Shown here piece after piece: positions 1-12,650 of a DNA stretch of 12,650 bases. The notes below the pieces were generated by a model, which worked only from the letters and a program-made list of their open reading frames with translations, did no database searches and was not told where the DNA came from. The translations under genes were made by a program, and so were the position numbers. The stretch comes from a virus (taxonomy: Duplodnaviria > Heunggongvirae > Uroviricota > Caudoviricetes): IMG/VR virus record IMGVR_UViG_2850756110_000008; one strand, written 5' to 3'. The first letter of the stretch is position 1; each line of letters begins with the position of its first letter.

Positions 1-294
1 GTGGCGCACGTCTTCGGTGAACGCACTCTGGCCACACTGGAGCGTCTTCTGAGCCTGCTGTCGGCCTTTGAGGTCGTGGTATGGATGACGGATGGCTGGC
101 CGCTGTATGAATCACGCCTGAAGGGAAAGCTGCACGTTATCAGCAAGCGTTACACTCAGCGCATTGAGCGACATAATCTGAATCTGAGACAACATCTGGC
201 AAGGCTGGGACGGAAGTCACTGTCGTTCTCAAAATCGGTGGAGCTGCATGACAAGGTCATCGGGCATTATCTGAACATAAAACACTATCAGTAA
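1..294 (+). CDS. insB: IS1 transposase InsB, C-terminal fragment (5' end outside window)
   Basis: Translation ...[70 protein letters not shown] is near-identical to the InsB C-terminus from memory. Confidence 0.9.
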
Positions 295-309
295 GTTGGA
301 GTCATTACC
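1..309 (+). mobile_element. IS1, right-end portion (element continues upstream of window start)
   Basis: ORF 1..294 is the C-terminal 97 aa of IS1 InsB. Its stop codon lies inside a terminal repeat ATCAGTAAGTTGGAGTCATTACC at 287-309 that matches the IS1 inverted repeat as I recall it. Confidence 0.9.
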
Positions 310-321
310 CAAGTAAATAAA

Positions 322-341
322 AACCCGCTCAACAGCGGGTT
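322..341 (-). terminator. Rho-independent terminator (tR'-like) downstream of the Q gene
   Basis: An 8-bp stem (322-329 pairing 334-341) with a 4-nt loop; on the minus strand it is followed by TTTATTTACTT. It lies about 110 nt downstream of the Q stop codon. Confidence 0.6.
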
Positions 342-374
342 CGTGAAAATTATCAACGGCAGACATACAAAGCC

Positions 375-416
375 CATCGTTGAGAAAATCTTATCCATGT
401 TTTTTGAAAAATGCAA
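375..416 (-). promoter_or_regulatory. Late promoter PR'-like with qut-like pause element
   Basis: On the minus strand: TTGCAT (plus 416-411), 17-bp spacer, TAAGAT (plus 393-388), then AACGAT at about +1 to +6. This resembles the -10-like sigma-dependent pause element of lambda PR' as I recall it. Position immediately after Q is as expected. Confidence 0.45.
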
Positions 417-447
417 GCTTCATGTCGCCATCTTCGGCGAAAATCAC

Positions 448-1200
448 TTATCTCGTCACCTTTCTCAATTGTGTTTCAGCATATGCTTCTTCCTGCCAGC
501 ACTTTGTTACTAGTTTATCAATTACGTCTGCATATCCTTTGTACCACTGATAATCAGTCAGGTCTGGAACCAGCTTCTGGACATGACGTCGTGCCAGTGT
601 AGTTGGTAAACGGCTAAACCGGTTTCCATTGCAACGCCCACAAATCTTATAAACAGGCGTGCCATGAAGCCGGGTCCTTTTTTCATCCAGGACAATACCT
701 TTACCCTTACACCCTCTGCACGCTGTGCTGACTTCTCCCTTACCATGACAATGCTGACATAGTTCCTTCACCCACTCTTCCTTGATAACAGATTCCCCGC
801 TTCTGGAGTGTTTCACCACCTCGCGCAATACATTATGAAATCCAGTACCAGCACAATGCTCACAGCGAGCCTTACTTGCCGCAGACCTAGAATAATCAGC
901 AAAGGCAAAATTCACAAGGTAAGGAATGATCTGTAGCCGGGTTTCTTCACTCAATTTATTCAATGTCGGGTTATCCAGTGCCATCGCGTAATTGAGCAGA
1001 CCTTCAATCGCAAACTGAGGATCCTGAACACCAACTTTTGCCAGGAATAAGGCAAACCCAAGCGGTGCTTTCGACTGCACCATCCCCTGCGCAGCCATCA
1101 CATCCGTAATCGTTAAACCACCAGAGCCTGTCGCCGGTGCGTCATCGCTCAGTTTTGGAGATTTCGGGGAGTAATATTTCGGTAAGGCTTCAAGGTTCAT
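448..1200 (-). CDS. Q: Lambdoid antitermination protein Q (82/Qin-type, 250 aa)
   Basis: 250-aa ORF with GGAG 7-8 nt upstream of ATG. Cys/His-rich zinc-binding region (CEHCAGTG...CQHCHGKGE...CRGCKGKG...CGRCNG) and overall resemblance to prophage Q homologues (QuuQ-like). Located at the end of the nin operon, before PR'/tR'. Confidence 0.85.
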   Translation of the reverse strand: MNLEALPKYYSPKSPKLSDDAPATGSGGLTITDVMAAQGMVQSKAPLGFALFLAKVGVQDPQFAIEGLLNYAMALDNPTLNKLSEETRLQIIPYLVNFAFADYSRSAASKARCEHCAGTGFHNVLREVVKHSRSGESVIKEEWVKELCQHCHGKGEVSTACRGCKGKGIVLDEKRTRLHGTPVYKICGRCNGNRFSRLPTTLARRHVQKLVPDLTDYQWYKGYADVIDKLVTKCWQEEAYAETQLRKVTR

Positions 1201-1213
1201 GCTCGTTCTCCAC

Positions 1214-1924
1214 TTACGCCAGTACGCCTATTGCCAGCGCACGATCGATAAAACGAAATATCAGCTCCAGCTGGGAACCATACTTCTCTTCAAATGCCAC
1301 GGTATCCGCATGCAGCTCGTCGTGATGCTTTCTGCACAAAGGCAACACAAAGAGGTCATGCGCTTTTGTACCCATTCCCCCCTGACCGTGGCCTATCAGG
1401 TGGAGGGGATCATCAGCAGGCTTTCCACAACATGCACACGGCTGTGTCTTAACCCAGCGTGTGTACTTTTCATTAACCCAGCGGCGACGTTTTGGGCGTA
1501 ACATAAAAGACTCCGGCGACTCCGGATCCACTTTCAGCGCCAGCACCTTTTTCACCTTATCCTGGATGATGCTGGTGGCAGGAACCGAAGGCACAAGGTC
1601 ACTTTCCCGGGTGACAGACGGCACAACAGGCTTCGGTAATCTCAGTGCCTTACGGGCTGCACTTTCCGGTAAGGCATCCGCCAGGTCATTACGAATCAGC
1701 CACCAGCACAGTTCCGGCATTGTCACAACGTGACTATCATCAAAACCGAGATCCCGACGCACAACAGACAACACCCAGCGGGCACAGTTATCCGTTGCCA
1801 TTGATTCCAGCCGTTCCGTGAACTGATCGCGCAGCTGGTTATCGCAGTGCCAGCACAGACGGATTGCGCCGGCGCGTGTCGCATTGTTGTCATGTTCTCG
1901 CTGTGCCAGTCGGAATGAGGCCAC
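1214..1924 (-). CDS. YdfU/DUF968-like phage protein, C-terminal part (HNH-like Zn motif); apparently frameshifted relative to 1723..2166
   Basis: C-terminus CACCGKPADDPLHLIGHGQGG...LCRKHHDELH is typical of the DUF968 family found just upstream of Q in Qin-like prophages. The ORF opens with GTG at 1924 with no plausible RBS, and its first 39 codons look like genuine protein (CWHCDNQ). Confidence 0.6.
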   Translation of the reverse strand: MASFRLAQREHDNNATRAGAIRLCWHCDNQLRDQFTERLESMATDNCARWVLSVVRRDLGFDDSHVVTMPELCWWLIRNDLADALPESAARKALRLPKPVVPSVTRESDLVPSVPATSIIQDKVKKVLALKVDPESPESFMLRPKRRRWVNEKYTRWVKTQPCACCGKPADDPLHLIGHGQGGMGTKAHDLFVLPLCRKHHDELHADTVAFEEKYGSQLELIFRFIDRALAIGVLA

Positions 1925-2166
1925 TGGCAGCCTTTTTCACGAAGTAACCAGCTTTCAAGACATTCCACGCCACCAGCACGACGGATCACTGCCTCATTGC
2001 GGAACACGGCCCGAACGTCAGGATCATCCGCCAGCGGTTGTGATGCCGCCGGAACAGCACCACTGGCGAAAGATGAATAACGTTCCGGCTCAGGCTCCAG
2101 CAGGACACGCCCCTGCATAAACAGGGGCATCAGCTCTGAACTTGGTCTGAACAATACGATCCCCAT
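1723..2166 (-). CDS. N-terminal fragment of the same DUF968-like gene (different frame)
   Basis: Begins 40 nt after the KilA-N gene stop. The first ~85 residues look protein-like; downstream of about 1920 the frame becomes Cys-rich low-complexity junk, while the other frame opens at 1924. Likely a single gene with a 1-nt indel near 1895-1925. Confidence 0.4.
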   Translation of the reverse strand: MGIVLFRPSSELMPLFMQGRVLLEPEPERYSSFASGAVPAASQPLADDPDVRAVFRNEAVIRRAGGVECLESWLLREKGCQWPHSDWHSENMTTMRHAPAQSVCAGTAITSCAISSRNGWNQWQRITVPAGCCLLCVGISVLMIVTL

Positions 2167-2208
2167 ACGCGGGGCAATTTCAGGGGCAGTAGTGCTCTCA
2201 CGGTCACC

Positions 2209-3006
2209 TCAATGAACGGTATCGAGCAGCTTTAACAGCTCAGGGAATCGGGATTCGAAGAAATGCGGCTGCGTCTCACGCGGATTTGCGGGACTGGTGA
2301 TATTCTTGCCGAACATGCAGCCTTTCGCTGTCAGCGACCAGAATTTTTTGATGTTGTTAATCGCTGTACGGCTGTATCGTTCGCGCTGTTCGACGATCCC
2401 CAGCTTCGCCATCTGGTGATATGCCTGATTAGCCGTAAGGCGGATACCATACTGCTTCAGCAGTGCACTCAGTGACAGCGTGGGGCGGCTTGAGCCATCA
2501 GGCGCGTCAGCAGGAGCATCAATGGCATAGCGCGGTGCCAGATTCGGTAAGCCAACAGCCTCCTGGAGTTTCTGACAGGCTCCAAGCACTGAAGAGTTAG
2601 ACAGGTTTAATTCCCGGCGCATAAAGTCCAGCAGAATCACACCAGCCTGCATCTTGTCAGCAGTCTGTCCGGATAATTTTTCCGGTGCACTGGTTACCAT
2701 GTCGAAAGTACGGATCACCTTCAGATGGAATGACGGGCTGATCCACATTGCATAGGCATACACCAGTTCTTTGCAGACATACGTCCCTTGGTTATTTCCG
2801 CCACGAATAACGTTAACTGGTTCTATATTGACCGAGTTGCAAATCTGCAACTCGCTTATTAAACGTTCAGTTTGCTCATTGCGGAGCCAGAATGCAGGCT
2901 TATGCTTATCCAGAGAACCAGCAGCCCTGTGCAGATCGTTCAGGCTGTAACGCCCATAAGCATCACGACGAACTTCAATTCCATCAATAACCATCAGATT
3001 ATTCAT
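2209..3006 (-). CDS. KilA-N domain protein (Roi/antirepressor-like)
   Basis: N-terminus MVIDGIEVRRDAYGRYSLNDLHRAAG...GTYVCKELVYAYAMWISPSFHLKVI fits the KilA-N DNA-binding domain pattern. Position between rusA and Q is typical of lambdoid nin regions. Confidence 0.75.
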   Translation of the reverse strand: MNNLMVIDGIEVRRDAYGRYSLNDLHRAAGSLDKHKPAFWLRNEQTERLISELQICNSVNIEPVNVIRGGNNQGTYVCKELVYAYAMWISPSFHLKVIRTFDMVTSAPEKLSGQTADKMQAGVILLDFMRRELNLSNSSVLGACQKLQEAVGLPNLAPRYAIDAPADAPDGSSRPTLSLSALLKQYGIRLTANQAYHQMAKLGIVEQRERYSRTAINNIKKFWSLTAKGCMFGKNITSPANPRETQPHFFESRFPELLKLLDTVH

Positions 3007-3025
3007 ACTTCGTTTCTCCTCTTAA

Positions 3026-3415
3026 TCAGGCTGCTGCACCCGCCGGTTTCTCGTACTTACTGATAGTGATCTCGACCTTCCCTTCCGGGATAACCGGTCC
3101 CCACTCCACCAGCATTCTTTTCACCTGACTGTCGTCTTCCCACACACCCGCGTGGGTCAGGGCGTCAAACAGCGCCTTGTTATAGTTGTTCAGATCGCGG
3201 ATCCGGTTATCCGGAGGAAACAACACGATCTCCACTGAAGCAGGTGCCGACGTTGGTTTTGGCAGACGACGTAACTGCTCAACTATTGCTGCACACGCCG
3301 CGCTCTGGAATTTGCGCCCCGCTGCGCTTATCAGGCTCTTACCAGCAAACGCCCCTTTGTTGGGGTGTCGCCAGTACGTGTTCACGCTGGGCGGAAAAGG
3401 CAGTATTAGCTTCAT
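3026..3415 (-). CDS. rusA: Crossover junction endodeoxyribonuclease RusA (Holliday junction resolvase)
   Basis: Motifs LPFPPSVNTYWR and DLNNYNKALFDALTHAGVWEDDSQV match the RusA family. Start overlaps the upstream stop as ATGA. Confidence 0.85.
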   Translation of the reverse strand: MKLILPFPPSVNTYWRHPNKGAFAGKSLISAAGRKFQSAACAAIVEQLRRLPKPTSAPASVEIVLFPPDNRIRDLNNYNKALFDALTHAGVWEDDSQVKRMLVEWGPVIPEGKVEITISKYEKPAGAAA

Positions 3416-3738
3416 ACTTTCAGGCCCCTCTCATGTAACCAGTGGGCTGCACGCAGCTTGGCGTTTTCCTCACCGGCAAGCAGTGAGCGGATAATCCCGA
3501 CCGCCTCGCTGTCGTCGTCCTTCACCGCGGTATGAAGAGTGATACCACGGGCCACACCACGCTTTATCGTGATGACGCCTTTTTTCTCCAGTGCTCTAAG
3601 ATGCTCCACCGCTGCATTCACTGAACGGTATCCCAGCATGGTTGCCACCTCCTGATTGGTTGGCGGGAAGCCACGTTCTTTCTGGTAAGAAATCAGCATA
3701 TCCAGCACCTGCTGCTGGCATTGAGTTAACGTCGTCAT
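3412..3738 (-). CDS. LexA N-terminal DNA-binding-domain-only protein (no peptidase domain)
   Basis: The 108-aa product aligns by eye with the LexA winged-helix domain (LTxxQQxVxDxI......GxPPTxxExAxxLGxRSxNAAxEHLxALxxKGVIxIxxGxxRGIxL). It lacks the Ala-Gly cleavage site and Ser/Lys peptidase domain. ATGA overlaps with both neighbours. Confidence 0.75.
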   Translation of the reverse strand: MTTLTQCQQQVLDMLISYQKERGFPPTNQEVATMLGYRSVNAAVEHLRALEKKGVITIKRGVARGITLHTAVKDDDSEAVGIIRSLLAGEENAKLRAAHWLHERGLKV

Positions 3739-4388
3739 GCCGCCATCTCCCTGACAAGTTTTTCTGCCTGCTGGCGAACTTGCGCCAGAAAGGCCTCACC
3801 ACATGCCTCAAGTTCATCGCGCCCGATGTAGCTGATTGCCGGTCCCTTCCAGGTCTTGTCGAAAACGGCAATAGCACCAGCGAAGAAAGCACCGGTTGGC
3901 ACCTGCTTCTCGTCTTTCGGGATAAACCAGGCAGGCAGTTCAAAACCAATACGCCCGCGAATAAAAGCAATATGATCCGCATCTTCCGGCCACCACACTT
4001 CGCTGGTGGCAGCTTTGATCAGGAAAACATAGCGCCCGCCCTTATCACGCATGGCACTGGCATGTTTCATGATGTAACGCATGCCGGTGATGTATTGCCC
4101 CTCATGCTGACTGGCGCGGCTGTATGGAGGATTTCCAAAGGCAGCACCTTTAAGCTCCGCAAGACGTTCTGACCAGTCATGCGCCAGCGCGTTGTCTTCC
4201 GCCGTGTAATACGCGGCACATTTGGCGTTATCACCGTCAGTAAACAGATCCAGAACAAACGGGCCAAACAGGGTGTTAATTCCCCAGAAAATGTTGTCCG
4301 GTGTGCGCCACTGATCGCCCACTTCCTTCAGTTCATGGGCTGGTTTGTTTCGCAACTCCACCAGCGCCTGGCAATATTTATTACTCAT
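3735..4388 (-). CDS. Phage Dam-type DNA N6-adenine methyltransferase
   Basis: Catalytic NPPY motif (GNPPYSRA) and overall similarity to phage Dam (PF05869-type) proteins. Start taken at the ATG at 4388, which overlaps the upstream stop (TAATG), rather than the ORF-track start at 4421. Confidence 0.8.
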   Translation of the reverse strand: MSNKYCQALVELRNKPAHELKEVGDQWRTPDNIFWGINTLFGPFVLDLFTDGDNAKCAAYYTAEDNALAHDWSERLAELKGAAFGNPPYSRASQHEGQYITGMRYIMKHASAMRDKGGRYVFLIKAATSEVWWPEDADHIAFIRGRIGFELPAWFIPKDEKQVPTGAFFAGAIAVFDKTWKGPAISYIGRDELEACGEAFLAQVRQQAEKLVREMAA

Positions 4389-4882
4389 TAAGCCCCCACG
4401 TAATTCCCTGACAGATACCACTCATCACCCGATACAGCGCGCTTGCTGCTTTTCCGTAAGCACCGCTCACGACGCGCCAGAAAATTGTTTCGTTCTGGCT
4501 GGGAGTGGCTTTCACGGAATGCCGCCATCCACACCGTTGCAGCACGACGGTATAAGCCCCTGGACTCCAGTTCTTCAGCCTGGCGGGTCAGGCACAAAAT
4601 CACCCGGGGACCGTTAGTGCCGACATAGAAATTGCGCACAGGTCTGGTTTCTCGAACTGATTGTGGTCCCGGTTCCTGCGCTCTCTCAGTCAGGCGCGGG
4701 AAATGTCTGCGTGTATCTCCTTCACAACGGTGAGCCACACGCCCACTCTGACGTAACTTGCTTGCAGACTGCAGAACGCGCTGCCGTGAGTAACCTGCAA
4801 AAGCATCCGCAATGTCTCCGGAAGTACACCCCGGATGGGCTTCAATGAATTTCTGAACGTCATTCAAAAGACTCATGCTCAC
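4388..4882 (-). CDS. PerC/Pch-like regulator with N-terminal winged-helix-like region
   Basis: C-terminal half carries AEELESRGLYRRAATVWMAAF, the same motif as the PerC-like ORF at 10141 (AEELESKGLYRRAAARWMEVM). Start is either GTG at 4882 or ATG at 4876. Translationally coupled to neighbours. Confidence 0.6.
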   Translation of the reverse strand: MSMSLLNDVQKFIEAHPGCTSGDIADAFAGYSRQRVLQSASKLRQSGRVAHRCEGDTRRHFPRLTERAQEPGPQSVRETRPVRNFYVGTNGPRVILCLTRQAEELESRGLYRRAATVWMAAFRESHSQPERNNFLARRERCLRKSSKRAVSGDEWYLSGNYVGA

Positions 4883-5445
4883 CCCCTGAATCCTGCCGGG
4901 ATCTGGCTGTAGTCCACGTTGTCGTAACTGGCTTTGAAGTACGGGTCTTCACGTTTTTCTGTGTGCGTGCTGACGGACGGCGATAAGCGCAGGGAAAGCT
5001 CATCCCATTTTTCCCGCAACTTCGACGGGCTGAGCACGTTACGGCACCAGAACGGATCGCGGCTGACGCGGCTGTACATCTCGCAGATTTGTTTGTGAGT
5101 ACGGCCATCCTGTACACACATCAGGCGAATTTCGTTTGCCCAGGCTGTCCAGTTCGGTTCTTTGGGACGAACCACCTCGCCGTCACATTCGGCAGCCTGC
5201 TCGTACAGGGCGATGATTTTTTTCCAGAGCCACTGTGCGCAGGTCAAATCATCCTGCGTCCCCCACTGGCGCTTTTTAGGGCTGAATACAACCGCATCAG
5301 GATGGCGAGTTAAAAAATCCTGTTCAGCCGTCTGCGTGTCCGGTTGCGAAGCGTCCGGACGAGAAGGTTTTTTATCTGACGGATCATGTTTTGATTTTAC
5401 TGACGGATCCCCGCCAGATTCTGACGGGTGAAAACCCGCTTTTTT
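4879..5445 (-). CDS. Phage early/nin-region protein, 5'-truncated by IS66-family insertion (function unknown)
   Basis: The ORF runs open up to and into the IS66 terminal repeat (the track's TTG start at 5460 is inside IS sequence). Translation is protein-like (…CAQWLWKKIIALYEQAAECDGEVV…). First gene of the coupled operon. Confidence 0.5.
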   Translation of the reverse strand, partial: KKAGFHPSESGGDPSVKSKHDPSDKKPSRPDASQPDTQTAEQDFLTRHPDAVVFSPKKRQWGTQDDLTCAQWLWKKIIALYEQAAECDGEVVRPKEPNWTAWANEIRLMCVQDGRTHKQICEMYSRVSRDPFWCRNVLSPSKLREKWDELSLRLSPSVSTHTEKREDPYFKASYDNVDYSQIPAGFRG

Positions 5446-5482
5446 GTAAGCGTGCAGCAAGAACCGTATTGACGGGGATGTG

Positions 5483-7021
5483 TTATTCAGTCGGCAGTGC
5501 TACGCGCCAGGGGAGCAGTTCGCCGACCCGGTTTATCGGCCAGTCGGCTATGACGTCAAGGACATAGCGGAGGTAGCTTTCTGGCTCCACTCCGTTCAGT
5601 TTGCACGTCCCGATCAGGCTGTACAGCAGCGCTCCCCGCTCTCCTCCATGATCCGAACCGAAGAACAGGTAGTTTTTGCGGCCCAGACTGACCATCCGCA
5701 ACGCATTTTCAGCGATGTTATTGTCCGCCTCAGCCCAGCCATCATCTGCATAGTACGTCAGCGCCGGCCACTGGTTCAGGGCGTATGCGAACGCTTTCGC
5801 CAGTTCTGAGTGTCGCGACAGGGTTTTCATCTTTTCACGCAGCCAGCTTTCCAGGGATTTCAGCAGCGGTTTCGTTTTCAACTGACGTTCGGCAAGGCGC
5901 TGCTCCGCCGTCATTCCCCTTATCTCTGCCTCGATGGCGTACAGTTCGCCGATCCGTTTCAGCGCTTCCTCCGTCAGGGCTGACGGGGTGCGAACGTGCA
6001 CATCGTGGATTTTACGGCGGGCGTGAGCCCAACAGGCGGCTTCCGTTATCCGGCCATCCCGGTACAGCTCGTTGAACCCGGCGTATGCATCCGCCTGCAG
6101 TACACCACTGAACCCCGCAAGATGGGTCTGCGGATGGATGCCTTTTCTGTCCGGGCTGTAAGCGAACCACACCGCCGGCGCCAGCGTTGACCCGGCGTTA
6201 CGGTCGTCACGAACGTAGGTCCATAACCGCCCGGTCTTCGTTTTCTTATTGCCTGGCAACAGCACCGGGACAGGCGTGTCATCAGCATGGAGCTTACCGT
6301 CAGTCAGCACATAGTCCTGAAGCGCTTCTTCCAGCGGTGACAGTAGCCGGCAGCATGCATCCACCCAGCCCGACAGCAGTGAACGACTCAGCTCCACGCC
6401 CTGGCGGCCGTACATTTCAGACTGGCGGTACAGCGGGGTGTGCTCTGCATACTTTGAGATCAGCACGCGGGCCAGCAGCCCCGGTCCTGCGATACCCCGC
6501 TCGATGGGCCGTGAAGGCGCGGGGGCCTGCACGATGGCATCGCACTGAGTACAGGCATGCTTTTCACGTACAGTCCGGATAACCCGGAAGACGCTGCGCA
6601 TCAACTCCAGCTGTTCGGCGGCATCCTCACCCGGATAGCTCAGTGAGCCTCCACATTCCGGGCAGCATGACGCTGCCGGCAGCAGCCGTTTTTCATCGCG
6701 GGGGAGTGATTCGGGGAACGGTTTGCGGGTGCGGGTTTGACGCAGCGGGCGCTGCACGGCCGGGTCGTCAACCCGACCGGTAAGGGTATCACTTTCTTTC
6801 TGAAGTGCCTTCAGGTCAGCTTCCATCTGTGCGATACGACGGGAGACTTTTTCGGAGCGGCTGCCGAAGTTCATCCGGCGCAGCTTATCCAGCTGTGCCT
6901 GCAGATGGTCTATTTCGCGTTCACGCTCGTTCAGCTTTTCCAGCAGGGCACGGTTCAGCGCCTCCTGTTCGGCAAGGAGACGTTTCAGTGCATTGATATC
7001 GTCAGGAAGTGAGCTGCTCAT
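5483..7021 (-). CDS. IS66-family transposase (TnpC/orf3)
   Basis: 512 aa with N-terminal coiled-coil/leucine zipper, CxxC...CxxC zinc finger (CPECGG...CTQC) and conserved LHADDTPV and TGRLWTY motifs. Confidence 0.9.
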
Positions 7022-7069
7022 ACCGGGTATATTACCAGGCTCATTCAGCGTCGACCAGGATAAAGAGGC

Positions 7070-7417
7070 TTACAACATAGTCAGGGACGTAAGCAGTCTT
7101 TTAGGCTGCCGCCAGTCGATACCTTCAAGGAGCATCGCCAGCTGTGCCGGTGTGAGGAACACTTTGCCATCCCGGGCTGACGGCCAGGCGAAGCGGCCGC
7201 GCTCCAGCCGTTTGGTCAGCAGACACAGTCCATCGCCGGTAGACCAGAGGAGCTTTACCTGACTGCCATTACGCCCACGGAAGATAAAAACGTGACCTGA
7301 CATCGGATCGTCTTTCAGCGTCGTCTGCACCTTTGCCGCCAGGCCGTTGAAGCCATTTCTCATATCGGTGATACCGGCAACCAGCCAAATTTTGGTCCCG
7401 GAAGGTAACGGGATCAT
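7070..7417 (-). CDS. IS66 Orf2 (TnpB) accessory protein
   Basis: 115-aa protein (…LVAGITDMRNGFNGLAAKVQ…LWSTGDGLCLLTKRLERGRF…) typical of the IS66 orf2 family. ATGA overlap with orf1. Confidence 0.85.
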   Translation of the reverse strand: MIPLPSGTKIWLVAGITDMRNGFNGLAAKVQTTLKDDPMSGHVFIFRGRNGSQVKLLWSTGDGLCLLTKRLERGRFAWPSARDGKVFLTPAQLAMLLEGIDWRQPKRLLTSLTML

Positions 7418-7794
7418 CGCTTCAGTTCCTGTATCAGCAGAGTCAGGAGCTTTTCGCTGACATTGCCATTGAAGCGGAGCGTCCCGTGCCGGAACGTTAC
7501 CTCACAGCTGATACTGAGGGTTTCCGGATCCTCTGCGAGCGATTCTGGCTGTTCGGCAGCTGCATCGAGAGTCACAGGAAGTAGCTGGGGGCTCTCTGAA
7601 GAAGGTAATAGCAGCTTTCCCTCGCGCCATTGTTGTCGCCATTTGAACAACAGATTGGCGTTAATGCCATTTTCAAGAGCAAGTTTTGAGATGGATATCC
7701 CGGGTTCACAGGAGGCAGCAACGAGCTGCTGTTTAAATTCGGGAGGATAATTAGGGCAGCCTTTTCGCCTGCCGGGATTCACATTTTTCTGCAT
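7414..7794 (-). CDS. IS66 Orf1 (TnpA) accessory protein
   Basis: Helix-turn-helix-like small protein in the first position of the IS66 operon. ATG at 7794 (MQKNVNPGRRK…) preferred; the ORF-track start at 7815 is a GTG. Confidence 0.8.
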   Translation of the reverse strand: MQKNVNPGRRKGCPNYPPEFKQQLVAASCEPGISISKLALENGINANLLFKWRQQWREGKLLLPSSESPQLLPVTLDAAAEQPESLAEDPETLSISCEVTFRHGTLRFNGNVSEKLLTLLIQELKR

Positions 7795-7946
7795 ATCTGA
7801 CACTTTGGTTCCCACTACTTATTTGGTGGACACCACTTTGTCTAATTCGTCAGATTCTGACCAGACGGTTCAGGCTGTACGCTGATATGACTTTCCGTGT
7901 CAAACCGGAATCTCTAATTTTGACGATTTTCTTTTTAGGTTTAATT

Positions 7947-8129
7947 CCCTGAGGGCGACGTAGCAGTAAATCCGACGGTGAATCACGCTGATATTCGCGG
8001 GTTGGATACCGCATTACAGAGGTCCGTCATATGAGCCTGCCACTTTCTTACGTCGCGAATCAGCTTTGTTCCGCCGTCGCCAAGCGCTAACGTGGGTTAC
8101 TCTTGTACCGGGCTACGTCGCCTTCAGGG
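7947..8129. ncRNA. Candidate IS110-family bridge-RNA-like structured noncoding element (strand undetermined)
   Basis: An 18-bp inverted repeat (7947-7964 CCCTGAGGGCGACGTAGC; 8112-8129 GCTACGTCGCCTTCAGGG, one G/U-compatible mismatch) encloses 147 nt. Inside, ACGCTGATAT (7985-7994) is identical to the 10 nt spanning the IS66-terminus/IS110-end junction (7879-7888). Confidence 0.3.
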
Positions 8130-8148
8130 AACTGGTTATTCTCATTTT

Positions 8149-9276
8149 TTATTTGTGACATTGTGGTTGTTGTGCGACAGACATTGCTATTCGGCCCATA
8201 TCCCAGATAAAACCCGCCAGCTCACGTGCAACAGCAACAATTGTAATATTGACATTCTTTCCTTTGGCCTGAAGTTTTCGATACCTCTTACAGAGCCTGA
8301 GTTGAGCATCCCATGCTCTGTCAATGACGGGGCGGGGTAAATTTTCCTGCCTTTTTTGTATTGCCGGACTGATGCGTGCCGGATGACGGTAACTCCACGC
8401 TGCCTCGACCAATAGCTTTCTGGCATAGCTGTTTCCGGCTTTGGTAATGCTGCCCTGATGTCTGCTTCCACCCGATGAATATTCTGATGGCGTGATACCA
8501 AACCATGACATCAGTTGTCGTGGATGTTCAAAACGGGTCAGATCACCCAGTTCAGAAATTAATCCAACCGCAGTAATAAACTGAATCCCTCGCATGGCTT
8601 GCAGCGCCTCTACTACCGGATACAGCCTCCATTCGGTAACGGCCTCCTTCAGGGCGGATTCCAGCCGTTCACATTGTGCCTGCCGGTCTTCTATTGTACG
8701 ACGGTGTTCGTCAAAAGCTAATTGTCGCCAGGGACTTTCGAATGAGTATTTGCTGAGCCAGCGTCGGTGTGCAGGGCCCCAATCTGCTCGCCCGACATAA
8801 TGGACCCCATGAACCAGAAGAAACGATTTCAGACGTTGCCTTGCATGCCGTAAATCATCGCGGGCAGATGCCCATGCCCGGGCCAAATCCCGGAATGCCT
8901 CATCTTCAATGCCGGGTACGTAGACAGCAGAAAGATCTCCTGCACGCAGTGAACGCACAAGTCTGATGGCATCACGGCGATCGGTTTTAACCCGCTCCCC
9001 CGGTTTTTTCGGGATAAGTGAGGGGGCGCAGACCATGCAGTCAAAACCGGATTTCACCAGCCGACGATAAAGTCCATAACCACAGGGCCCCGCTTCATAA
9101 ACGATACTGACCTGCGATGACTTTGACCTGAGACGTTTACAAAGATTCTGAATATCAGTAGGTGATGTGCCAATTTTACCCATCAGTTCAACAGGTTCTG
9201 AATTGATAGCATAAGCGACAGTAATCGATTCTTTGTGAACATCTAACCCGACGTACAATGTGTTATTGTTGTTCAT
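8149..9276 (-). CDS. IS110-family transposase / DEDD recombinase
   Basis: 375 aa from the ATG at 9276, with GGAGG 7 nt upstream. N-terminal RuvC-like DEDD motifs (YVGLDVHK, IVYEAG, KTDRRDA) and C-terminal Tnp domain with conserved Ser (GITPSEYSSGGS). The ORF track extends the start to 9324, which lacks an RBS. Confidence 0.85.
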   Translation of the reverse strand: MNNNNTLYVGLDVHKESITVAYAINSEPVELMGKIGTSPTDIQNLCKRLRSKSSQVSIVYEAGPCGYGLYRRLVKSGFDCMVCAPSLIPKKPGERVKTDRRDAIRLVRSLRAGDLSAVYVPGIEDEAFRDLARAWASARDDLRHARQRLKSFLLVHGVHYVGRADWGPAHRRWLSKYSFESPWRQLAFDEHRRTIEDRQAQCERLESALKEAVTEWRLYPVVEALQAMRGIQFITAVGLISELGDLTRFEHPRQLMSWFGITPSEYSSGGSRHQGSITKAGNSYARKLLVEAAWSYRHPARISPAIQKRQENLPRPVIDRAWDAQLRLCKRYRKLQAKGKNVNITIVAVARELAGFIWDMGRIAMSVAQQPQCHK

Positions 9277-9426
9277 GCTGGCCTCCGTGGTGGAAATACC
9301 GGGGGGTAGCAACAGCTCACCCATGCGGCTCTGACAACGATGTTAACCCGCGTTAAATATCCCACGTTGGCCAGCATCTGTCTCACGGAAAGTCATACTG
9401 CCTTACTTTCCAATGGGCACTCATGT

Positions 9427-9882
9427 TTATACGCTGACCTTACAATCAATCACCGCTTTTAAATTTTCAGCATTGCTTCCCTGACGCTTCCACGCGCTGT
9501 AAATATCTTTATCCCACGCTTTACCAGCTTTTGTTTGATAGCCTGCTTCATTGATCCGTTCAGCTATCACACGCCCATTATCAAATCCCTGTTGGATGGT
9601 ATCGGCAATGATCTTTATAACTGCCGTTTCGTTATATGGCTTTGGTGGGATGTTCGGCTTTCCGGCAATAAGCGACGCAGCGGCTTTTTCCATGCGCTCC
9701 ACCAGCCCAAGCATTCGTGAATCAATAGACTTTTCCGGCTGTCCCAGCTTCATGCGAATCGCATCAACAAGCCAGGAGGTTTTATCCCCTCCAGAAGCGA
9801 GAACAGACCGATTAAACTCATCCTGCAATTCAGATGGGATGCGGAACGCGATCAGATTAGATTTGCTCATTGCAAAGACCAT
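9427..9882 (-). CDS. Hypothetical protein, possibly ribbon-helix-helix (Arc-like) DNA-binding at the N-terminus
   Basis: 151-aa protein-like ORF divergent from the PerC-like gene. N-terminus NLIAFRIPSELQDEFNRSVLASGGDKTSWLVDAIRMKL resembles RHH folds. A palindromic operator-like site lies 20-50 bp upstream. Stop is 30 bp from the IS110 end, so the C-terminus may be altered. Confidence 0.5.
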   Translation of the reverse strand: MVFAMSKSNLIAFRIPSELQDEFNRSVLASGGDKTSWLVDAIRMKLGQPEKSIDSRMLGLVERMEKAAASLIAGKPNIPPKPYNETAVIKIIADTIQQGFDNGRVIAERINEAGYQTKAGKAWDKDIYSAWKRQGSNAENLKAVIDCKVSV

Positions 9883-9899
9883 ATCAGTGAGTAATATCC

Positions 9900-9931
9900 A
9901 TACAGTATACCACTGTATAACACTGTTATAC
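9900..9931. promoter_or_regulatory. Overlapping palindromic operator-like sites upstream of the 151-aa gene
   Basis: ATACAGT-N5-ACTGTAT (9900-9918) and a perfect 17-bp palindrome GTATAACA-C-TGTTATAC (9915-9931). A minus-strand TATACT -10-like hexamer overlaps. Confidence 0.4.
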
Positions 9932-9983
9932 GCTCAAATATCAGCCAGAAAATAACGGACCAATCACAAAGCTATCGCTGTGT

Positions 9984-10104
9984 TGTTGGTTCAGAGCTGG
10001 GCTGTGTTGGTTCAAAATGAGTTGATGTTGGTTCAATATTTTAGAAAAACATAATAAAAACAACGATCTTTACAAATTGAACCAACTGAACCAACTGAAC
10101 CAAC
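9984..10104. repeat. Iteron-like array: six copies of GTTGGTTCA (3 direct at 21-bp spacing, 42-bp AT-rich spacer, 3 inverted in 9-bp tandem)
   Basis: TGTTGGTTCA at 9984-9993, 10005-10014 and 10026-10035. AT-rich 10036-10077. TGAACCAAC at 10078-10086, 10087-10095 and 10096-10104. Confidence 0.7.
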
Positions 10105-10135
10105 ACCTTTTTGCTTATCTATATAATCTGAGAGG
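10096..10135 (+). promoter_or_regulatory. Putative promoter and RBS of the PerC-like gene, overlapped by the inverted repeats
   Basis: Perfect TATAAT at 10122-10127 and GAGAGG at 10130-10135 before the ATG at 10141. The -35 region coincides with the TGAACCAAC repeats. Confidence 0.3.
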
Positions 10136-10140
10136 CAGAA

Positions 10141-10422
10141 ATGATAAGGGACAGGAAAGCTGAAGAGCTGGAGTCAAAAGGGCTATACCGGAGAGCTGCC
10201 GCACGATGGATGGAAGTCATGCTGTTATGCACCGAGGACGATGATCGGGAATGGATAAAGCGCCGCCGTGAAACGTGTCTGGAGAACGTGAAGCGCCCGC
10301 CCGTGAAGGTTGAGGAATTTGGCGACCTGCATAAAGCTGTTACCGAAACGCAACACCGCATGGGGATAGCGCAACCGAACGGTAACGCCTTCCGGTTAAA
10401 TGGCGGCAAGAGGCAAAGGTAG
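10141..10422 (+). CDS. PerC family transcriptional activator-like protein
   Basis: 93 aa with the N-terminal motif RDRKAEELESKGLYRRAAARWMEV characteristic of PerC/Pch proteins as I recall them. Good RBS. Confidence 0.7.
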   Translation: MIRDRKAEELESKGLYRRAAARWMEVMLLCTEDDDREWIKRRRETCLENVKRPPVKVEEFGDLHKAVTETQHRMGIAQPNGNAFRLNGGKRQR

Positions 10423-10718
10423 ACCACCAGAGGGAAATCATCCTCTGGCTGGCGGTTTCTGGTATTTCGGGACAAGTACGCGCGCGCGTAGCACCCAATC
10501 GGTGAGGAAATAGCGGCGACCTGAATGGTCAAAATCACAACGCAGCTATCCCCGTAAGCAGCGCTTAACGGAATAGCAGTAACCTGAATCCAGTGGGGAG
10601 GGGTAGTCAAATCTCTACAGCCCTGACTATCCGGGACTGCCCGCCCCATCGTTTTTTTATACCCGCGAAAAATGAAATTTAATCCGGGCGTGTTTCATCC
10701 TTCCAGAGGGTATGACGT

Positions 10719-10904
10719 ATGACACCACGCGAAATAGCCTTATTGACCATCGCCAAACTTGAGCACGGAGGCCACCAGCTTACACAGGCAGATCAACGGG
10801 AGATAGAACGATCAGTTAATGCCGATATAGCCCGGCGCGACAGGTTCCGCGAAATGATGCGAGCACCTGCCTACCAGTGGAAGAAGCCAGCGCCGCGCAG
10901 GTAG
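10719..10904 (+). CDS. Hypothetical small protein (61 aa)
   Basis: GAGGG 8 nt upstream of ATG; charged helical-looking product; no family recognised. Confidence 0.4.
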   Translation: MTPREIALLTIAKLEHGGHQLTQADQREIERSVNADIARRDRFREMMRAPAYQWKKPAPRR

Positions 10905-11024
10905 ATATGGGATTATTCCACATGTACCTTATGCGTATTAAGCAAATTTCCTTTATTCACCTTTACAGAATTGTGAGTACGTCAGTATCGTTATCCTTCC
11001 GATTCGCATTTATTCAGGATTTGC

Positions 11025-11567
11025 ATGTACCAGCTAAAGATAACCATCCGAGACAGCAAACCACCTATATGGCGGCGTGTGCTGGTTCCAGAGCAAATCC
11101 CCTTTAGTAAACTTCATGCCGTGATCCAGTTAGCTTTTGGCTGGAATGACGAACACCTGTATATGTTCGAGAAAGGGCGTAAAGGTGATCCAGGTAGCGA
11201 GTATCGCGTATGGGGTGAGGATGAAAGCATGGGTAACGCGGCAATCACGCCACTATGGGCGGCGCTCCAGAATGAGGGTGACAAGCTGGTTTACACGTAT
11301 GACTTTGGCGACTGGTGGGATTGCGTCATTGTGCTGGAGAAGCAAACACACGATACGAGTAATCAGCCCATTAGCTGCCTGCGTGGGAAAGGCACCACCC
11401 CGGCGGAAAACTCAGGCGGCTTGCATGGTTACAATGAATTGCTATTACAGGCCAGAGAGTCTGATAATCCTGAGCAGGCCGAGATCCACAATTTCCTGAT
11501 GCTGGATATTGAACGCCGGGTTTACGACCTGAGCCGCATCAACGACAGATTGCAGGCTATTAACTGA
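11025..11567 (+). CDS. Plasmid pRiA4b ORF-3-like family protein
   Basis: N-terminus MYQLKITIRDSKPPIWRRVLVPEQIPFSKLHAVIQLAFGWNDEHLYMF matches the conserved start of PF07929-type proteins as I recall them. Confidence 0.65.
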   Translation: MYQLKITIRDSKPPIWRRVLVPEQIPFSKLHAVIQLAFGWNDEHLYMFEKGRKGDPGSEYRVWGEDESMGNAAITPLWAALQNEGDKLVYTYDFGDWWDCVIVLEKQTHDTSNQPISCLRGKGTTPAENSGGLHGYNELLLQARESDNPEQAEIHNFLMLDIERRVYDLSRINDRLQAIN

Positions 11568-11919
11568 CCCGCATGTATTCACCTGATATTGCGTTGTCAG
11601 CGCCGCCAGTATCGCGCATAACAGCGCACTGACCGGGTAAACCGTAGCGCACGACCGTTGCGTTAGTATCACCGCCGCGCCGTATCTGGCGCGATTCATA
11701 CACTGTCACCCGCTCAAGCAGTCCACCAGCAACCATGCTTTCCAGTGTGCGCCGGGTTGATTCGAGCTGGTGACGCTTATCGAACGACACCATGCCATGA
11801 AGCAGGTAGGCCACACCCGACACATCGAACGGCGGCGCACCAATCTCACCAGTCACCCATTCGAGGTTATCCGGTTCAAAGTAGCTAAGTATCTCTTTTT
11901 TGCGACTGGTCATTCTCAT
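11560..11919 (-). CDS. Hypothetical protein (119 aa), convergent with and overlapping the previous gene by 8 bp
   Basis: Protein-like composition; AGGA 11 nt upstream of ATG at 11919; no family recognised. Confidence 0.45.
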   Translation of the reverse strand: MRMTSRKKEILSYFEPDNLEWVTGEIGAPPFDVSGVAYLLHGMVSFDKRHQLESTRRTLESMVAGGLLERVTVYESRQIRRGGDTNATVVRYGLPGQCAVMRDTGGADNAISGEYMRVS

Positions 11920-12146
11920 GGCTGGCTGATTCCTTATTGTGGGATAGCACTATCATACAATAAGTGGGTTAAAGGGAGAGCGTTACCGCCTGATATGCTG
12001 TATGAATAACAACCAAATTTCAGGGGCGGAAAAAGATATGGGGGTACTTTTGGGGGTATCTATAAAAAATGAACAATAAAAAAGGCAACAAAAACAAAGC
12101 TTATCGCCTATGTGTATTGTTCCTATTATCCATTTAAATCAATAAG

Positions 12147-12650
12147 TTACACATCATTAGTACGTTCCTTATTTCTTGACTGGGACAAATTTGGGACCGA
12201 TGGGTTCAGAATCGAGTCTATTTGCCGTGCGTGTTCGGTAAGGTGATTAGGTGCGAGGTGAGCATATCGACGAACCATTTCGATAGACTCCCAGCCTCCC
12301 ATTTCCTGTAACACTGATAACGGGACTCCGGCTTGAACCAGCCAACTTGCCCAGGTGTGTCTCAAGTCGTGAAATCTGAAATCATCAATACCTGCTCGTC
12401 TCAGCGCCGCTTTCCAGGCTGTGTTTGCGTCATACCGCATCTTCCTGACTGTTGGCGCTTTCGTTCCGTCTGGTTTGGTACAGCTTTCCTTATACACAAA
12501 TACCCAACGGTGATGATTCCCGATTTGTTTTTTCAATACGCGACATGCAGTATCATTCAGCGCAACGCCAATTGCGCGGTTTGATTTACTCTCTTCCGGG
12601 TTTATCCATGCCACCCGGTGAGGTGTACTGGCAATAGCGGACACTACCAT
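12147..12650 (-). CDS. Tyrosine-type phage integrase, C-terminal catalytic domain (5' end beyond window)
   Basis: Conserved HDLRHTWAS (His-x-x-Arg) and catalytic Tyr context EMVRRYAHL. The ORF is open to the window edge. Confidence 0.9.

Follow-up and report, generated by a model that had tools for sequence, protein, structure and literature searches.

Mismatched flanks of an ISEc22 element in a Shigella prophage remnant point to recombination between IS copies

Inversion rates are reported to be very high in Shigella, above all in S. dysenteriae, and have been linked to the expansion of IS elements (PMC8072062; PMC7373316). Mobile elements can also serve as landing sites for each other, e.g., within the IS1111 group, IS4321 and IS5075 target Tn21-family terminal repeats and ISEc21 inserts at a conserved position within the transposase genes of the IS3 family (PMC11187229). 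Both kinds of behavior bear on the locus described here, which lies in a 12,650-bp stretch of DNA (hereafter "the window") that is 100.000% identical to the Shigella chromosome CP026805.1 across all 12,650 bp. At its center is a copy of the known element ISEc22, with which it shares the tnpA-tnpB-tnpC trio, the GTAAGCG repeats, the length of 2,441 bp and, in the copy held by relatives, an 8-bp target duplication. The window copy is unlike the usual ISEc22 in that its flanks are mismatched and one terminal repeat is split 3 bp from the tip by another IS. As in the IS-mediated inversions and deletions already known from Shigella, the breakpoints fall in IS copies, the flanks are exchanged and both isomers occur in close strains; nothing essential sets the locus apart from these, and it represents a small (5.4 kb) local case in which a prophage remnant and an island have become interleaved.

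Identity and true ends of the ISEc22 element

The first-pass annotation had called an IS66-family insertion, and this was borne out by Pfam and by sequence identity, which identify the element as ISEc22 on the minus strand. All but its last 3 bp occupy positions 5446–7883 (minus strand), as delimited by Pfam, megablast, the repeat arms and an intact reference copy. It encodes the three genes characteristic of the family, all on the minus strand and assigned by Pfam: tnpA (7414–7815; HTH, PF01527), tnpB (7070–7417; IS66 Orf2-like, PF05717), and tnpC (5483–7021; DDE_Tnp_IS66, PF03050, E 7e-107), the last also matching PF13005, PF13007, and PF13817, with zinc-finger and leucine-zipper parts. By megablast against complete E. 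coli genomes, the element was 99.7–99.8% identical over ~2,440 bp to many copies annotated as "IS66-like element ISEc22 family", i.e., near-identical to ISEc22.

The matches in complete E. coli genomes all stop at window position 7883 (...GTACGCT); on the left, the element starts at 5446 (GTAAGCG...). The repeat arms lie at 5449–5467 and 7865–7883, and the terminal repeats are imperfect and start with GTAAGCG, the left one being intact and the right one split into 7865–7883 and 9404–9406. For comparison, an intact reference ISEc22 (L004) is 2,441 bp long, runs from GTAAGCGTGCAG to GGCTGTACGCTTAC (...GTACGCTTAC), and has the 8-bp duplication TCTTCTCC on either side. At its right end the window reads ...GGCTGTACGCT (to 7883), GATATGACTTTCCGTG ... 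CACGGAAAGTCATACTGCCT, TAC (9404–9406), and then TTTCCAAT, while L007 and others lack the intervening insert and read ...GTACGCTTAC/TTTCCAAT (a slash marks a junction). Because L007 without the insert has this continuous sequence, ISEc22 must span 5446–9406 and be broken 3 bp from its tip. The TAC at 9404–9406 (minus strand), with which the right repeat of the intact element also ends (GTACGCTTAC), is its true right end, and its length is 2,441 bp once the insert is removed. The first reading, in which both terminal repeats were present, the element ended at 7886 and an IS110 element abutted it, thus had to be revised: a 1,520-bp ISSso6-family element of IS110 type is inserted inside the right repeat, and the true end of ISEc22 is 9406.

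These corrected ends also change the bases that flank the element. The left 8 bp, GCTTTTTT, had been given correctly, but the right 8 bp compared with them, ACTGCCTT (9397–9404), are the last bases of the inner element plus the ISEc22 tip; the wrong bases were compared because the IS110-type element has sub-terminal repeats of 14 bp, which had been taken for its ends. The true right flank is TTTCCAAT (9407–9414), which still differs from GCTTTTTT, and therefore the absence of a target duplication holds, although it had been derived from the wrong bases. The 8-bp direct repeat that exact ends might have uncovered did not appear. As argued below from related genomes, the missing duplication reflects later recombination rather than a different transposition chemistry.

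The prophage and island flanks

To the left of ISEc22, positions 1–4878 (minus strand) hold the late-early region of a lambdoid prophage remnant, as assigned from Pfam, PHROGs, identical loci and the intact related prophage L002. An IS1 fragment lies at the window edge (about 1–310), followed on the minus strand by a Q-like antiterminator (448–1200), a truncated DUF968/HNH gene (1214–1924), and genes for KilA-N (2209–3006), RusA (3026–3415), a 108-aa LexA-type DNA-binding protein (3412–3738), a Dam methylase (3735–4421), and a PerC-like activator (4388–4882). The PerC-like, Dam, RusA, KilA-N, DUF968, and Q genes form a nin-like set downstream of a replication gene. It is this replication gene that ISEc22 interrupts: a prophage gene is indeed truncated, as first proposed, but it is a lambda O-like replication initiator gene rather than the first gene of the nin operon. 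Positions 4879–5445 (minus strand) hold the 3′ part (last 189 codons) of this 313-aa gene, as judged from PHROGs (the complete protein has a hit to phrog_391, "replication initiation O-like", E 9e-136) and from a 100% match to L002, which ends exactly at the IS; codons 1–125 are missing from the window. L002 is a lambdoid prophage of E. coli L3452210II in which the gene is intact, reading ...CCCGCTTTTTT then GCCAGATTTCG... across the insertion site. The 193-aa ORF (4879–5460) does run into the left repeat, by 15 nt, and takes a TTG start plus five codons from ISEc22.

The right flank has a different origin. Positions 9407–12650 come from an unrelated integrative island, of which they form the right end (100% match to L003), with a 151-aa ORF (9427–9882, minus strand), a PerC-like 93-aa ORF (10141–10422, plus), a 61-aa ORF (10719–10904, plus), a PRiA4_ORF3 gene (11025–11567, plus), a 119-aa ORF (11560–11919, minus), and an integrase fragment (12147–12650, minus). 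In L003 this sequence runs on into P22-type ejection genes at one end and into yagU/ykgJ/ecp at the other. Leftwards from TTTCCAAT, other strains continue (...AACAGC/TTTCCAAT...) into a 73-aa gene and the P22-type ejection genes, and rightwards into the integrase fragment, yagU, and the ecp operon. The TTTCCAAT at 9407–9414 is thus the flank of a different ISEc22 site in the island (site B), which reads aacagcTTTCCAATgggc where uninterrupted in L003. An in-frame start, ATGAGTGCCCATTGGAAA, lies just right of the IS and would read into the truncated gene; this is a coincidence, as the sequence belongs to the island. The flank comparison with an intact related prophage that had been suggested earlier thus accounts for the left side as the 3′ part of the O-like gene, and the right side is island and not prophage. 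Upstream replication and immunity DNA does not adjoin the IS, in agreement with the first-pass annotation, but the DNA across the IS is not a more distal part of the prophage exposed by a deletion.

Arrangements in related genomes and the origin of the mismatch

Since the 193-aa ORF includes five IS-derived codons, its exact sequence is a marker for the tnpC-end junction, and its exact look-up led to Shigella chromosomes (S. boydii and S. dysenteriae being the database names attached to the protein). The tnpC-end junction CGCTTAC/AAAAAAGCggg (CGCTTAC/AAAAAAGCGGG) was common to all loci found with this ORF, while the tnpA end existed in two states, adjoining either the 5′ gene part (GAAATCTGGCAAAAAAGC/GTAAGCG) or the island (CCCATTGGAAA/GTAAGCG). 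At least 10 independent assemblies, mostly complete chromosomes, have the window-type junction pair (the window plus at least nine more). In a search of 5,426 complete E. coli genomes with the joined flanks, the halves matched different loci and were contiguous in none; neither the left nor the right ISEc22 junction of the window occurred in complete E. coli genomes, and the left junction had no match in a search of one genome per species.

Two related assemblies, PSSQ01000001.1 and CP026828.1, retain the parental state of the replication-gene insertion. Both read ...ggcAAAAAAGC/ISEc22/AAAAAAGCggg..., with a perfect 8-bp duplication and both gene halves present, and at the tnpA end ...gaaatctggcAAAAAAGC/GTAAGCG, where the missing 5′ gene part forms a 128-aa ORF stopped by the IS tip. 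Given this perfect duplication and the two gene halves, the insertion into the O-like gene was originally an ordinary one. By comparison with these assemblies, the GCTTTTTT at 5438–5445 is the surviving copy of the 8-bp target duplication (site A); in L009/L037 and L013/L038, where the insertion is the same, these 8 bp (AAAAAAGC when read on the opposite strand) occur at either end of it. Short contigs with a "128-aa" protein (L041–L046) were also considered as IS junctions and rejected, these being genes cut by contig ends at ...AAAAAAGCG, and the exact 128-aa 5′ fragment was not among cluster representatives in a protein search.

PSSQ01000001.1 contains a second ISEc22 in inverted orientation 5.4 kb away. 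The tnpA end of this copy carries the window's exact island junction (cccATTGGAAA/GTAAGCG), the site-B junction seen on a second ISEc22 copy in L037/L047. Its tnpC end adjoins CGATATCC, beyond which lie a 201-aa gene and the cI/cro region of the prophage, i.e., cI (224 aa, Peptidase_S24), cro, a CP76 gene, and a 112-aa gene. This second copy is itself mismatched (ATTGGAAA vs CGATATCC), which implies that ISEc22 originally occupied at least three sites and that another exchange came before. A replicative inversion through intramolecular transposition was rejected: ATTGGAAA and CGATATCC are not identical, nor is one the reverse complement of the other, and different DNA follows at the uninterrupted site B. 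A simple insertion at site B, with TTTCCAAT duplicated, was found nowhere: its predicted sequence (CTGCACGCTTAC+ATTGGAAAGCTG) had no match in one genome per species, and only uninterrupted islands were returned for the 73-aa gene that lies across site B.

The exchanged state is preserved in CP026842.1, which holds both combinations: the island, ISEc22 and the 3′ gene part on one copy, and the 5′ gene part, ISEc22 and the CGATATCC-cI-cro region on the other, the junctions of the reciprocal product being GAAATCTGGCAAAAAAGC/GTAAGCG and GCACGCTTAC/CGATATCC. The 5.4-kb segment between the copies aligns in reverse between CP026842.1 and PSSQ01000001.1 (99.63%). With flanks exchanged and both isomers seen, the alignments identify PSSQ01000001.1 (parental) and CP026842.1 (exchanged) as the two isomeric forms that result when inverted IS copies recombine homologously and invert the DNA between them. 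CP026805.1 has no reciprocal copy (5′ gene part/ISEc22) within 10 kb. Single-nucleotide differences between ISEc22 copies (14 variable columns, mostly private) gave only a weak hint of a crossover at position 1573, which could not be mapped because the copies differ at too few positions.

Taking these arrangements together, we consider it very likely that the window ISEc22 is a chimera produced by RecA-type homologous recombination between two independently inserted ISEc22 copies, each of which arrived by normal transposition, and that the two flanks differ as a result of this recombination. In such a history, one ISEc22 first entered the O-like replication gene of the lambdoid prophage and duplicated GCTTTTTT, as is still seen in the relatives. 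Another copy, whose junction is preserved in the window, would have inserted into the unrelated island at ...TTTCCAAT. The two inverted copies would then have recombined in this genome as they did in its relatives, flipping the 5.4 kb between them, so that the tnpC-proximal end kept the 3′ gene part and the tnpA-proximal end gained the island flank. Thereafter, the displaced segment (5′ gene part, cro, cI, and the second ISEc22) was probably lost through recombination between two directly repeated IS911 copies.

The fate of the immunity region is consistent with such a loss. Among contigs >1 Mb, exact look-ups found the 128-aa fragment, the 224-aa cI, and the junction ORF only in PSSQ01000001.1, CP026828.1, and CP026842.1; as they did not return these sequences for CP026805.1, the source genome has probably lost them. 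In CP026842.1 the immunity region is displaced and inverted, not deleted, and lies between two directly repeated IS911 copies. PSST01000003.1, which shares an island variant (133-aa ORF) with PSSQ01000001.1, equals the latter after one inversion and the loss of exactly the IS911-bounded segment. The earlier proposal that the replication and immunity region was removed is therefore probably right as to the outcome, but not as to the mechanism and probably not as to the place: the deletion in the source lineage was probably an IS-IS recombination event and may have occurred elsewhere than at the window junction.

These steps could also have followed in the other order, with the IS911 copies inverting first and a deletion between the now directly repeated ISEc22 copies then creating the window junction and removing cI/cro and the 5′ gene part. 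As far as the compared sequences go, the same end state would be reachable either way. Starting from PSSQ01000001.1, this two-step route leads to exactly PSST01000003.1 and the window-type arrangement, and it agrees with the exact look-ups, in which the 5′ fragment and cI were absent from window-type genomes. However, its intermediate was seen in no locus, while that of the route beginning with the ISEc22 inversion exists in CP026842.1, and we regard the IS911-first order as possible but rather unlikely.

Much less probable is the adjacent deletion proposed in the first-pass annotation, in which ISEc22 would have transposed intramolecularly into a nearby target and removed the DNA between, leaving no duplication. 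The window does lack a target duplication, and upstream prophage genes are missing from the neighborhood. Such an event, however, draws its new flank from DNA of the same molecule that had lain on that side of the IS, and leaves a junction unique to that copy, and neither was observed: the new flank comes from an unrelated island, and in PSSQ01000001.1 the same island/IS junction sits on a separate ISEc22 copy while the copy in the replication gene keeps both copies of its duplication. We reject this reading, which would have destroyed the boundary of the 5′ gene part with the IS and created the island junction on that very copy. Both reciprocal junctions, moreover, coexist in CP026842.1. The two mechanisms can be told apart here because related genomes keep both the parental and the exchanged arrangements. 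Finally, although near-identical IS copies are a classic cause of misjoins, a false junction made by a collapsed or mis-joined repeat has a negligible probability given that the same junction pair recurs across independent assemblies and that the alternative isomers are each internally consistent.

Target choice of the ISSso6-family element and decay of the prophage

The latest event was the arrival of the element that splits the right ISEc22 repeat, which among window-type assemblies is present only in CP026805.1 and is absent from L007, otherwise 99.97% identical. This 1,520-bp insert (7884–9403, minus strand) belongs to the ISSso6 family (IS1111 group, IS110 family) by its Pfam domains (PF01548 and PF02371) and RefSeq label, with >99% identical copies named "IS110-like element ISSso6 family transposase" in RefSeq. 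It sits in the GTAAG^CG of the ISEc22 tip (the caret marks the insertion point), and its ends are ambiguous by 2 bp since CT occurs at both junctions. By splitting the terminal repeat, it would probably have immobilized this ISEc22 copy.

The ISSso6-family element has the features of its group. These are a DEDD transposase (PF01548 and PF02371; 8149–9276, ORF to 9324, minus strand), perfect 14-bp sub-terminal repeats (7886–7899 and 9384–9397) lying 2–6 bp inside the ends, and, 3′ of the transposase, 265 nt of non-coding sequence (7884–8148). This sequence has a folding energy of −88 kcal/mol (z = −4.64 vs shuffled controls) and is a predicted seekRNA/bridge RNA; a search of the whole window against Rfam returned no family at gathering score.

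Target choice was surveyed in 14 copies from several genomes. The left flank ended in (G/A)TAAG in all 13 copies where it was visible (11 GTAAG, 2 ATAAG), and the right flank started AGCG(T/C) in 13 of the 14, the exception being L063, in an ISEc22 repeat without 6 bp. The target is thus sequence-specific, with no duplication beyond the shared core. It corresponds to the tip of IS66-family repeats, GTAAG^CG(T/C), and about half of the 14 copies were in IS66-family ends, the remaining ones being at chromosomal sites with the same motif. In an ISEc22-like element of E. coli, one copy sits at exactly the same position as in the window. Separately, other ISSso6-family copies show partial tandem duplications of their own right end.

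From these sequence patterns, the ISSso6-family element is plausibly an RNA-guided IS of the seekRNA/bridge-RNA type, with the 8-bp target GTAAG^CG(T/C) programmed to the IS66-family repeat tip, so that it would repeatedly land in and disable IS66 elements; the right-end duplications could then reflect self-targeting at guide-encoding segments. If true, it would prey on a different family of IS elements. The likeness to IS4321/IS5075 and ISEc21 extends to the DEDD transposase, the sub-terminal repeats, the structured non-coding region, the absence of a duplication and a fixed short target in a mobile element. The ISSso6 family differs from them in the target itself, GTAAG^CG(T/C), and in also using this motif at ordinary chromosomal sites. 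This target preference is the only mildly new-looking point of the locus. For annotation, the lesson is that IS1111-type elements with sub-terminal repeats can hide the true end of the element that they interrupt.

The rearrangement in the window is known biology, i.e., a routine consequence of IS expansion in Shigella, and does not change current understanding. In an IS-rich genome, recombination between IS copies explains a missing duplication beside an IS far more often than transpositional adjacent deletion does. The case illustrates the stepwise dismantling of a prophage, in which ISEc22 splits the replication gene, an inversion displaces the immunity region, and a second IS-IS event apparently removes it.

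Target choice of the ISSso6-family element

We compared the flanks of 14 copies of the ISSso6-family (IS1111-type) element, namely the one at 7884-9403 of the window and those at L001, L005, L006, and L055-L064, and these gave the insertion motif (G/A)TAAG^CG(T/C), with L063 as the sole overall exception. This target motif is also the tip of the IS66-family terminal repeats, and about half of the 14 copies interrupt IS66-family ends; the remaining copies occupy the same 8 bp at chromosomal sites. On the minus strand, the element's non-coding region at window 7884-8148 shows strong structure (z = -4.64), and it contains both AUAUCAGCG, which is identical to the right-end/target junction, and CGUAAG, which is identical to the left half of the target.

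In several copies, the right end is partly duplicated in tandem over 106-205 bp (L001 5443-5560, L005 2125-2245, L060 about 2891-3096, and L061 about 2891-3052). The extra right end adjoins sequences internal to the non-coding region (AGCGTGATT, AGCGCTTGG, and AGTGGCAGG) that are similar to the target or donor of the element, and these duplications may reflect self-targeting at guide-encoding segments.

The insertion position seen in the window recurs identically in E. coli (L001, NZ_CP102947.1), where the element lies within an ISEc22-like copy (3001-7068) of composite ~95.6% identity. The flanks of this copy are mismatched (CCTCACTC vs CTATCTTA), and it is therefore probably another recombinant copy.

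The interrupted replication gene and the edges of the remnant

ISEc22 splits the lambda O-like replication initiator gene at window 5445/5446, and many unrelated short-read assemblies (contigs L041-L046) break this gene within 1-3 bp of the same position, at ...GGCAAAAAAGCG. This position probably marks where a conserved N-terminal HTH module gives way to variable C-terminal modules common to several prophages. In CP026842.1 (L048 14700-15755), the inverted 5′ fragment of the gene is called together with IS911 orfB as one 351-aa fusion ORF, which is why an exact look-up of the 128-aa 5′ fragment missed this genome.

Within window 1214-2208, the DUF968/HNH gene encodes 236 aa and is followed by a gap of ~285 bp, as against 329 aa in PSSQ01000001.1 and CP026828.1, and it looks frameshifted or otherwise damaged internally in the window lineage. 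Directly after the Q antiterminator gene, an IS1 copy (window 1-310) ends the prophage remnant; in the neighbouring DNA of related loci (L007/L036), gcl-allR-allA-allS lie beyond this IS1 copy, and lysis and structural genes are missing. IS elements therefore bound both sides of the remnant.

The integrative-island family at the right end

The module of PerC-like, PRiA4_ORF3, and 119-aa proteins (window 9407-12650; also L017-L035) is conserved as the right end of integrative islands that belong to a very widespread family, and the index of the collection lists the PRiA4_ORF3 protein in 22,640 blocks. P22-type ejection-protein genes (gp7, gp20, and gp16), an unusual cargo for a satellite-like element, are found alongside a P4-like integrase, AlpA, AntA, an ASH-type protein, and a primase in combinations that vary among members.
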